Positions 25,485-25,968 of a stretch of DNA of 64,000 nt are shown in pieces; positions within the stretch are counted from its first letter, which is position 1, and every line of letters begins with the position of its first letter. The stretch is taken from assembly GCA_028716045.1 (NCBI GenBank), contig JAQUQO010000001.1:862343-926342 (forward strand). Reading direction: 5' to 3'. A program made the translations under genes and the position numbers. The notes beneath the pieces are model-generated. The model saw only the letters and a program-made list of their open reading frames with translations. It ran no database searches and was not told the DNA's origin. This DNA is from Patescibacteria group bacterium. Lineage in GTDB: Bacteria; Patescibacteriota; Patescibacteriia; JAQUQO01.

Positions 25485-25815
25485 TAGTAGTTTCCCGCCG
25501 CAGCGGGACAGGCGCTTGGTAGAACGCCCCGCCATGGCGGGGAGGTCGTCAAAACCTAAATATGGAACATTTCGTTTACATTTTACAGAGTTTAAAAGAT
25601 AGCCGATATTATATAGGTAGCACTAATGATTTAAGTAGGAGATTAGAGGAACATAATAGCGGGAAAAGAAAATCATTAAAATTTAGGAGACCCTTAGAGA
25701 CGGTGTATAGTGAAATTTTTAGTACAAAACAAGAAGCACATAAAAGAGAGTTGCAGATTAAATCATATAAGGGAGGCAATGAGTTTAAGAAGTTAATTAT
25801 TAAGCGGTAGTAGTT
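25485..25815 (+). mobile_element. putative mini insertion (~295 bp) carrying a GIY-YIG ORF, bounded by 18-19 bp direct repeats TATTAAGCGGTAGTAGTT equal to the 5' end of tRNA-Gly
   Basis: DR copies at 25485-25502 and 25798-25815. The left copy continues as a degenerate tRNA-Gly 5' half (D-arm TTGGTAGAACG retained, anticodon arm replaced by palindrome CCCCGCCATGGCGGGG). Confidence 0.35.
25562..25810 (+). CDS. GIY-YIG nuclease-domain protein (YhbQ/UPF0213-like)
   Basis: 82 aa. FVYILQS...YYIGSTNDLSRRLEEHN matches the GIY-YIG motif. The stop codon lies inside the first bases of tRNA-Gly. Confidence 0.7.
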   Translation: MEHFVYILQSLKDSRYYIGSTNDLSRRLEEHNSGKRKSLKFRRPLETVYSEIFSTKQEAHKRELQIKSYKGGNEFKKLIIKR

Positions 25816-25876
25816 CAGTTGGTAGAACGTCTCCTTGCCAAGGAGAAGGTCGCCGGTTCGAGCCCGGTCTACCGCT
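25804..25876 (+). tRNA. tRNA-Gly(GCC)
   Basis: GCGGTAG acceptor stem, D-arm AGTTCAGTTGGTAGAAC, anticodon loop TTGCCAA, T-arm GGTTCGAGCCC. Confidence 0.85.
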
Positions 25877-25968
25877 CAAAGAAAAAATTATTGTATTTGG
25901 GTTTTGAAAATGTAAATTTTTTCAGAACGGACCACCCGTTTTTTATTTTTGTCGTGCGGGTTTTGGGT

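Follow-up and report, generated by a model that had tools for sequence, protein, structure and literature searches.

Why should a short nuclease gene in a bacterial chromosome run end to end into a tRNA gene, with its stop codon inside the tRNA and an altered copy of the same tRNA standing in front of it? The question is raised by a 64,000-nt stretch of contig JAQUQO010000001.1 from a Patescibacteria group bacterium (hereafter, the window), in which a gene for an 82-residue GIY-YIG protein (25562-25810, + strand) lies between the endonuclease IV gene nfo and an intact tRNA-Gly(GCC) gene (25804-25877, + strand). The open reading frame (ORF) is embedded in a tRNA transcription unit, is bordered on both sides by tRNA-derived sequence, and is present in one genome and absent from another at a conserved site. 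It is probably a selfish gene resembling those of homing endonucleases, one that would spread by means of homology to tRNA genes and be expressed from a tRNA promoter.

The insert is marked out by a 19-nt exact direct repeat, TTATTAAGCGGTAGTAGTT, whose left copy (25474-25492, + strand) consists of 7 nt of 5' flank and positions 1-12 of tRNA-Gly, and whose right copy (25797-25815, + strand) starts where the conserved part of the protein (..FKKL) stops. The copies begin 323 bp apart with 304 bp in between and, when extended, match over 26 nt at 88% identity. A preliminary description of this locus had placed an 18-19 bp repeat around a segment of about 295 bp; the repeat stands, and the length was an approximation. 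The left repeat continues as a pseudo-tRNA-Gly (25480-25548, + strand) that covers tRNA positions 1-49, contains two GC hairpins, and is without T arm, 3' acceptor strand and anticodon. Taken with its 5' flank, this upstream copy aligns to positions -7 to 49 of tRNA-Gly in four kept blocks (-7 to 12, 19 nt; C13-G15, 3 nt; T16-G26, 11 nt; A44-G49, 6 nt), in which 39 of 39 bases are identical to tRNA-Gly.

What has changed lies between these blocks. The first hairpin, TCCCGCCGCAGCGGGA (TCCCGC-CGCA-GCGGGA; 16 nt, 25493-25508, + strand), interrupts the D stem between positions 12 and 13, and a second D-region insert, GCGC, follows C13-G15 (CAG). The 23-nt D-arm insertion of the preliminary description corresponds to the run of TCCCGCCGCAGCGGGA, CAG and GCGC, for which the net gain is 20 nt. 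The second hairpin, CCCCGCCATGGCGGGG, a perfect 16-nt palindrome (25527-25542, + strand), stands in place of the 17-nt anticodon arm (positions 27-43), in agreement with what had been noticed before. At the other end of the gene, the last 7 nt of the ORF are positions 1-7 of tRNA-Gly, and the TAG stop codon (25808-25810) falls, as had been read, within the tRNA, at positions 5-7. The downstream tRNA-Gly is recognized by ARAGORN and by the Rfam tRNA model (70.3 bits, E=5.7e-15). Neither ARAGORN nor Rfam, the latter at E up to 10, calls a tRNA in the upstream copy, which matches the earlier account of it as a disrupted half.

That account had also called the upstream copy degenerate, or a decayed paralogue, and here we come to a different view: the kept segments are identical to the functional gene, and precise arm swaps with the same core recur across phyla. 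Because identical blocks are combined with the exact replacement of arms by one hairpin in many phyla, random decay cannot be the cause. Nor did the hairpins in the window arise by chance, there being seven strand-wise matches to the motif, at four sites, against 0.02 expected. We also considered a simple staggered-cut target-site duplication and set it aside, as it predicts two identical copies and leaves the arm swaps unaccounted for.

If the insert is mobile, some relatives should lack it. The closest relative found (L083, with a trigger factor gene, tig, 70% identical and nfo 51% identical) has the order tig-nfo, 60 nt, tRNA-Gly(GCC), 64 nt, tRNA-Leu(TAA), with neither the ORF nor the pseudo-tRNA at the tRNA-Gly site. 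Comparison with relatives for a single tRNA-Gly without the insert, a check suggested in the preliminary description, thus returned such a site, and an arrangement common to all relatives, which would have spoken against integration, is not what we find. In the window (tig, 23262-24551; nfo, 24558-25415) the pseudo-tRNA starts 64 nt past the nfo stop codon, in the place of the L083 tRNA-Gly, and the intact tRNA-Gly lies 324 bp further on. The presence and absence expected of a homing gene at a conserved site is therefore observed, through one distant relative. The closest nfo homologue found was 51% identical, and when metagenome DNA was scanned with the tRNA-Leu sequence, the L083 contig was the only hit; three other contigs (L084-L086) keep tig-nfo and have different genes downstream.

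The association between gene and tRNA is a general one. A single scan of species-representative genomes gave 327 relatives, and 80 loci were fetched; the counts below refer to these 80 and the window, 81 in all. A tRNA on the same strand abuts the ORF in 70 of the 81 loci, on the upstream side only in 26 (type A), on the downstream side only in 37 (type B, including the window) and on both sides in 7; of the other 11 loci, most are interrupted by the end of a contig or have pseudo-tRNAs only. The loci span Patescibacteria, Bacteroidota, Marinimicrobia, Ignavibacteria and others, with protein identities of 55-67% across phyla, and their adjoining tRNAs represent at least ten isoacceptor types (Ser, Pro, Tyr, Gly, His, Thr, Glu, Asp, Ile and Gln). 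The host tRNA differs by lineage, being Pro in Bacteroidota, Ser in Marinimicrobia and Ignavibacteria, and Ser(GGA), Tyr, Gly, His, Thr, Ile, Asp, Gln or Glu in Patescibacteria and others. Gene and tRNA are closely joined: many type A ORFs begin with an ATG -3 to +6 nt from the tRNA 3' end, and the stop codon of type B ORFs falls 7-38 nt within the tRNA in about 27 loci and no more than 18 nt ahead of it in the rest. Most type B ORFs have no stop codon of their own, and the ORF has no promoter or terminator of its own. A search for further copies of the gene next to tRNAs, as had been proposed, thus finds them widely, and the suggested integration or duplication of a nuclease-encoding element at a tRNA gene both holds and generalizes (70 of 81 loci, at least ten isoacceptors, and an empty site in L083). 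Searches of the open-access full-text literature, a scope that leaves most subscription journals outside, found no description of tRNA-linked genes of the UPF0213 type or of arm-swapped pseudo-tRNAs.

Several features of these loci point to movement. More than one copy of the nuclease gene occurs in 16 of the 81 loci. Tandem arrays of pseudo-tRNA-Pro plus ORF, with a period of about 360 bp, are found in Bacteroidales; loci L074, L065, L041, L018 and L016 contain tandem arrays, one array copy in L074 being frameshifted. Contigs often end at the nuclease gene, and in the Thr-Tyr-Thr-Trp tRNA cluster of Patescibacteria (the candidate phyla radiation, CPR) the position of the gene differs by lineage. 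In L055 both pseudo-tRNA halves share the acceptor stem GTGGTCG/CGACCAC, as against GTGGGTG/CACCCAC in the functional tRNA-His between them, and in L076 the pseudo-T stem differs from that of the neighbouring tRNA by compensatory changes. Such differences indicate that the tRNA pieces derive from another functional tRNA or another lineage, as would be expected if a flanking tRNA travels with the gene.

Two observations on copy number may be added. Second copies of the gene, often partial, stand a few hundred bases off, usually by a tRNA or pseudo-tRNA (L012, L002, L026, L033, L040, L044 and L049). Shorter tandem repeats, likewise in Bacteroidales, seven copies of 66 nt in L065 (1431-1892) and four of 68 nt in L043 (1610-1880), are built from a tRNA-Pro 5' acceptor strand, a GC hairpin for the D arm and an AT-rich tail, and sit directly 5' of the functional tRNA-Pro and of the arrays of nuclease genes.

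These findings bear on two explanations that need no homing. According to the first, the gene is a resident, vertically inherited housekeeping gene of the UPF0213 type whose place in a tRNA cluster is accidental, with a decaying local duplicate of the tRNA as the upstream fragment. UPF0213 proteins such as YazA and YhbQ are indeed ordinary chromosomal genes, and the window holds a single copy within its 64 kb; yet L083, the closest relative, is without the insert, the family occupies at least ten host tRNA types and includes tandem arrays and pseudogenized copies, and the kept bases of the pseudo-tRNA are 100% identical rather than decayed. Full-length similarity, a single copy and synteny would characterize a housekeeping orthologue, and the gene is multi-copy and non-syntenic; the second circumstance that the preliminary description had named as a refutation, a single-copy gene syntenic everywhere, does not apply either. 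Its composition also deviates, the GC content of the ORF (31.3%, against 41.3 +/- 4.1%) being lower than that of all 42 long ORFs in the window. The protein, moreover, has a C-terminal motif of its own, IKSYKGGNAFKKL, specific to the subfamily (32 homologues), and is less than 48% identical to YazA-type proteins, with matches that end at residue 67-69. This explanation is largely refuted, and we consider it very improbable.

The second draws on the facts that tRNA genes are classic integration sites and that GIY-YIG genes are frequent in group I introns: the insert would be an island of the kind that integrases place at tRNA attachment sites, or the homing endonuclease gene of a group I intron in a tRNA. 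In its favour, the protein scores 24.9 bits with the NCBIfam 'group I intron endonuclease' model, below the cutoff of 56. But between nfo and tRNA-Gly the GIY-YIG ORF is the sole credible gene, and no integrase accompanies it; the insert measures about 300 bp; duplication has affected the 5' and not the 3' part of the tRNA; the tRNA is uninterrupted; and no intron or other Rfam family was detected even at E up to 10. The anatomy refutes both forms of this idea, to which we assign next to no probability.

What kind of enzyme does the gene encode? The preliminary description had recognized a GIY-YIG protein similar to UPF0213, and this is borne out by a match to PF01541 over residues 3-69 (67.3 bits against a cutoff of 22.6, E=1.5e-18) and by the best sequence matches in the Protein Data Bank (PDB), the UPF0213 structures 1zg2 (E=1.5e-9) and 1ywl (E=7e-8), which are BH0048 and EF2693. 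Seven residues are invariant in 32 homologues (Y6, Y17, G19, R27, H31, N32 and R62) and E63 is kept in at least 90% of them; the window protein has all eight. An AlphaFold model (pLDDT 91.6) predicts strands at 3-10, 16-21 and 45-53 and helices at 24-33, 56-68 and 73-80, the arrangement of the GIY-YIG fold. The best Foldseek matches are UPF0213 (1zg2) and the nuclease domains of Slx1 (TM 0.67-0.73, 30-34% identity), and the match to I-TevI is weak (TM 0.50-0.54, E above 0.2). By sequence and predicted structure, then, the protein is a bare catalytic domain of the Slx1/UPF0213 kind, and its invariant catalytic residues and confidently predicted fold lead us to infer that the enzyme is active.

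The family is large, with 6,362 clusters at 50% identity recovered by a profile search at E of 1e-10 or better. Phage and plasmid collections yielded only distant matches of the UPF0213/YazA type and no close copies; PHROGs gave one weak match (E=1.2e-4), and the best PADLOC match, to PDC-S14 (E=2.4e-4, 18 bits over 31 residues), fell below significance. Past ..FKKL the C-terminal tails of the homologues vary with the tRNA, and in several database entries they are translated tRNA sequence. A distant housekeeping UPF0213 homologue, in Listeria monocytogenes (NZ_LR134402.1, 109346-109543), is annotated beside the gene for tRNA1(Val) (adenine37-N6)-methyltransferase, possibly another link between the protein family and tRNA.

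A homing process could account for this anatomy as follows. The nuclease would cut or nick the DNA of a tRNA gene or of its close surroundings, and the damage would be repaired from a copy that bears the element; tRNA sequence on both sides of the ORF would supply the homology arms, tRNA being conserved across species when the surrounding DNA is not. Repair would copy the ORF and leave behind a partial or whole duplication of the tRNA, unequal exchange between the resulting repeats would generate tandem arrays, and a difference between lineages in which copy is the functional one would give rise to types A and B. The ORF would be expressed from the tRNA promoter within the tRNA precursor. Cleavage of that precursor by RNase P at G25804 (G1), which lies inside codon 81, would remove codon 82 and the stop codon and leave a non-stop mRNA. 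Because the stop codon lies within tRNA-Gly, tRNA maturation and synthesis of the full-length nuclease would compete for each transcript, an arrangement that may act as a brake on expression.

The signals around the gene are compatible with such a transcript. A promoter-like sequence, TTGATT-16-TATAAT with a TG extension (25419-25446, + strand; a consensus match only, at 10 of 12 positions), is presumed from its sequence to be the promoter of the tRNA operon, now 5' of the pseudo-tRNA, and L083 has TTGATT...TATAAT at the equivalent place ahead of its tRNA-Gly. The preliminary description had offered the pseudo-tRNA as promoter or leader of the nuclease gene; since the promoter-like sequence lies 5' of it, the pseudo-tRNA would be a 5' leader and not a promoter. 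Between pseudo-tRNA and ATG are 13 nt (25549-25561, + strand) that contain no Shine-Dalgarno-like sequence and form the 5' arm of a long-range complementarity: leader and start codon (25549-25562) can pair over 14-16 bp with 25894-25907 (+ strand), 17 nt past tRNA-Gly, the 16 pairs comparing with a maximum of 9 in shuffled sequences. In the precursor, such pairing might hide the start codon. None of 42 other loci with a downstream tRNA has it, and a reading of the two arms as terminal inverted repeats was rejected, as they are not a feature of the family. A terminator-like stem followed by a T run (25924-25942, + strand; again a consensus match only) lies 3' of tRNA-Gly.

Several considerations weigh against the homing interpretation. 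Its mechanism is drawn from anatomy and comparison, and L083, being distant at the DNA level, establishes presence and absence and not the direction of the event. The catalytic domain accounts for all 82 residues, with no DNA-binding module apparent from Pfam or the AlphaFold model, and to our knowledge every characterized GIY-YIG homing endonuclease has a DNA-binding domain. An enzyme that recognized tRNA genes would still target the intact tRNA beside its own ORF. In a neighbour-joining tree, a weak one of about 80 columns, the window protein stands apart from the other copies linked to tRNA-Gly. Two copies of the hairpin in the window lie away from tRNAs: the 16-mer CCCCGCCTTGGCGGGG at 33360-33375, in the 5' untranslated region (UTR) of infB, and a copy with two mismatches, CCCCGCCTTGGACGGG, in an intergenic region at 11339-11354. 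Finally, homing alone leaves the replacement of tRNA arms by one conserved hairpin unexplained.

The last of these points turns on how regular the replacement is. In most loci the side opposite the intact tRNA carries a copy of the same tRNA with CCCGC(N2-8)GCGGG hairpins, which are bounded in 23 cases by tRNA positions 9-11/26-28 (D arm) and in 13 by 25-28/43-46 (anticodon arm), others lying at 49/65 (T arm) and elsewhere. The swaps nearly preserve length, a 17-nt anticodon arm giving way to 16-17 nt, and the hairpin flanks agree with the neighbouring tRNA at 1671 of 1748 bases (95.6%). Within 130 nt of the ORF the strict motif occurs at 3.81/kb, as against 0.20/kb elsewhere, a 19-fold enrichment; it is present in 59 of the 81 loci, and loci without it have variants, such as CCACCGCC..GGCGGGG, or double hairpins. 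The whole design of the window (D-region hairpin, anticodon-arm hairpin, truncation in the variable region, ORF) recurs at tRNA-Ser(GGA) in Saccharibacteria, for example in L005. The identical CCCCGCCATGGCGGGG swap of the anticodon arm is found in L019, downstream of a tRNA-Gly(GCC), and swaps of the same type as the second hairpin occur in L034, L076, L055, L075, L081 and L049. Rfam 15 reports only canonical tRNAs in these regions (window positions 25300-26700 at E up to 10, and 20 related loci at the gathering threshold).

The hairpins may act in RNA, as a processing-resistant stabilizer or decoy; they may form a structured DNA site for the nuclease; or they may block recombination that would delete the ORF. 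One possibility, which we entertain tentatively, is that the hairpin-bearing pseudo-tRNA is an RNA element of the nuclease mRNA, a GC-clamped tRNA mimic placed at its 5' end (as in the window) or its 3' end, which would set expression by shielding the message from exonucleases, or by evading RNase P and RNase Z or acting as a decoy for them, the arm swaps having been selected for that function; mobility of the element is compatible with such a role. ORF, pseudo-tRNA and tRNA are always co-oriented, and the swaps keep both the length of the arm and the outline of the cloverleaf. The sixth pair of the stem varies in a compensatory manner (CCCGCC..GGCGGG, CCCGCT..AGCGGG, CCCGCA..TGCGGG), loops of the CNNG type are frequent, and in the window the promoter-like site is directly 5' of the pseudo-tRNA. 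A structure maintained in RNA should nevertheless tolerate G.U more readily than A.C on the sense strand, and the stem mismatches display no such bias (8 and 11 unique cases, respectively); the fold of the window pseudo-tRNA does not differ significantly from that of shuffled sequences (z = -1.55), pseudo-tRNAs are often truncated in different ways, and a core sequence conserved across phyla exceeds what a generic stabilizer would need.

The absence of strand bias, together with the mostly perfect Watson-Crick pairing of these palindromes, may also speak for action at the DNA level, though the mismatch counts do not by themselves separate an RNA role from a DNA role. A GC-clamped cloverleaf extruded from single-stranded or supercoiled DNA could be a four-way substrate or docking site for the putative Slx1-like nuclease, and targeting by structure rather than by sequence would explain why the protein has no DNA-binding domain. 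It is a bare catalytic domain whose closest solved folds are the nuclease domains of Slx1, cutters of branched DNA, and the hairpins stand in for exactly the arms of the four-way junction. Against this, the loops vary from 2 to 8 nt, truncated pseudo-tRNAs (that of the window among them) cannot form a full cloverleaf, and repair of a cut pseudo-tRNA would have the element receive sequence rather than donate it. On balance we regard a DNA-level role of this kind as rather doubtful.

It is also conceivable, though in our judgment unlikely, that the hairpin is an independent, dispersed palindromic mini-repeat that has colonized redundant pseudo-tRNAs secondarily and is linked to the nuclease only indirectly. 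The copies in the infB 5' UTR and, with two mismatches, at 11339 fit this idea, as do the 0.20 hairpins/kb found far from the gene in the fetched loci and the CAGCC..GGCTG hairpins that L083 carries in fragments of pseudo-tRNA-Lys beside another small gene. A secondary colonist would not readily produce the 19-fold enrichment beside the gene, nor insertions whose limits are the exact arm boundaries and which keep the length of the arm, nor the same core in Bacteroidota and Patescibacteria, each time by the nuclease gene.

A broader proposal would be that nuclease gene and arm-swapped pseudo-tRNA together constitute a previously unrecognized class of bacterial mobile element, in which a minimal, Slx1-like putative nuclease with no DNA-binding domain is targeted by the GC-clamped tRNA cloverleaf structure, in DNA or RNA, the tRNA genes serve as landing pad and homology arms, and the tRNA mimic is an obligatory component in cis rather than debris. 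We put this forward as a speculative possibility, to which we give well under an even chance. The use of universally conserved tRNA genes as both landing pad and arms would explain spread across phyla.

Precedents exist for parts of the homing interpretation. The nearest, by analogy, is SegB of phage T4, a phage-borne protein of about 220 residues, of the I-TevI type and with a DNA-binding region. SegB is a GIY-YIG homing endonuclease that recognizes a T-loop motif of tRNA genes and whose gene is passed on together with the tRNA genes beside it (PMC2330249). Segments containing tRNA and segB are amplified in tandem through its action, and it co-localizes with many tRNA isotypes (PMC13096335). 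The element described here likewise places a GIY-YIG gene among tRNA genes, with co-localization in 70 of 81 loci, and its arrays parallel the amplification of tRNA+segB. It differs in that its protein, of 82 residues and the Slx1/UPF0213 kind, consists of the catalytic domain only, with neither an I-TevI-type domain nor a C-terminal DNA-binding region, and is encoded in bacterial chromosomes rather than by phage, and in that its gene is joined directly to the tRNA and has hairpin-substituted pseudo-tRNAs beside it, of a kind not reported for SegB.

Within the GIY-YIG superfamily the protein falls in the UPF0213/Slx1-like branch, to judge from its fold and catalytic motif, which it shares with the UPF0213/COG2827 proteins (Bacillus halodurans BH0048, Enterococcus faecalis EF2693, B. 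subtilis YazA, E. coli YhbQ) and with the eukaryotic Slx1 domain; Slx1 has, in addition, a RING domain and needs Slx4. Unlike genes for UPF0213/COG2827 proteins, the element gene is multi-copy, abuts tRNAs and has its own C-terminal motif, and in function it resembles, by analogy, a free-standing homing endonuclease gene. Free-standing homing endonuclease ORFs of organelles, such as that at atp6 in Allomyces, carry a partial copy of the target gene, and the displaced fragment is left as a pseudogene. There, as here, the nuclease ORF lies between a functional target gene and a partial duplicate, with one end fused to the target, but in our case the target is a bacterial chromosomal tRNA gene and the arms of the duplicate are replaced by a conserved hairpin.

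GC-rich hairpins tied to a small nuclease or transposase gene are known from REP/RAYT systems, the ends of IS200/IS605 elements, and the GC clusters and double-hairpin elements of fungal mitochondria. Those elements, too, are short GC palindromes in AT-rich genomes, with solo hairpins scattered about, but the enzyme here is of the GIY-YIG type and not an HUH/Y1 transposase, and the hairpins occupy the arm positions of a tRNA scaffold; we know of no transposition chemistry for the GIY-YIG enzyme of this element. Integrative elements that target tRNAs (islands and prophages) resemble ours in their landing site and in the partial duplication of the tRNA, and differ in having an integrase, the insert here being about 300 bp, with the 5' part or the whole of the tRNA duplicated and a nuclease gene as sole cargo.

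Were these proposals to hold, a biological role would be provided for a large branch of uncharacterized GIY-YIG proteins of the UPF0213/Slx1 kind, and tRNA-gene homing, so far represented by phage SegB, would be a feature of bacterial chromosomes too, in Patescibacteria, Bacteroidota and other phyla. Recurrent pseudo-tRNAs, tandem arrays of tRNA-Pro and assembly breaks by tRNA genes in metagenome-assembled genomes would then be explained as well. As mimicry of RNA or DNA, the precise, length-preserving replacement of arms by a conserved hairpin is unusual, and a nuclease of 82 residues able to find tRNA genes with no DNA-binding domain would interest those engaged in enzyme engineering.

The remaining features of the locus concern the surrounding gene order and the solo hairpins. 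The local order is tig, nfo, element, tRNA-Gly(GCC), tRNA-Leu(TAA), tRNA-Lys(TTT), tRNA-Tyr(GTA), tRNA-Lys(CTT), then HU and ymdB on the opposite strand. Just 5' of tRNA-Leu(TAA) is a solo remnant (25953-25986, + strand) made up of a tRNA-Leu T-stem fragment, CGTGCGGGTT (25953-25962), and a third hairpin, CCCCGCCTTGGCGGGG (25971-25986); the spacer between tRNA-Gly and tRNA-Leu is 119 nt in the window and 64 nt in L083. The hairpin at 33360-33375 lies about 45 nt 5' of infB (33422-35386; Pfam IF-2) and is enclosed by an ATTGC/GCAAT helix with GA/GAA internal loops. A reading of those loops as a kink-turn was dropped, because they do not fit the consensus. The copy at 11339-11354 adjoins a strong terminator-like palindrome.

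Elsewhere in L083 (2160-2240) a tRNA-Lys(CTT) is flanked by pseudo-tRNA-Lys pieces with hairpins of other types (TCAGCC..GGCTGA, CCAGCC..GGCTGG, and others in the T loop). These are followed by a gene (2334-2832) for a 122-residue PF05635 '23S rRNA intervening sequence protein' (E=7e-27), which may be another sort of small gene making use of pseudo-tRNAs with altered arms. In the window itself, downstream of the element, a 190-nt direct repeat (26060-26249 and 26375-26564, 88% identity) contains in each copy a tRNA 3' end (Leu or Tyr), a spacer of about 90 nt and a tRNA-Lys (TTT or CTT), the spacer forming a long imperfect hairpin, ACAACCAACAAC...GTTGTAGGTTGTCAGTT.

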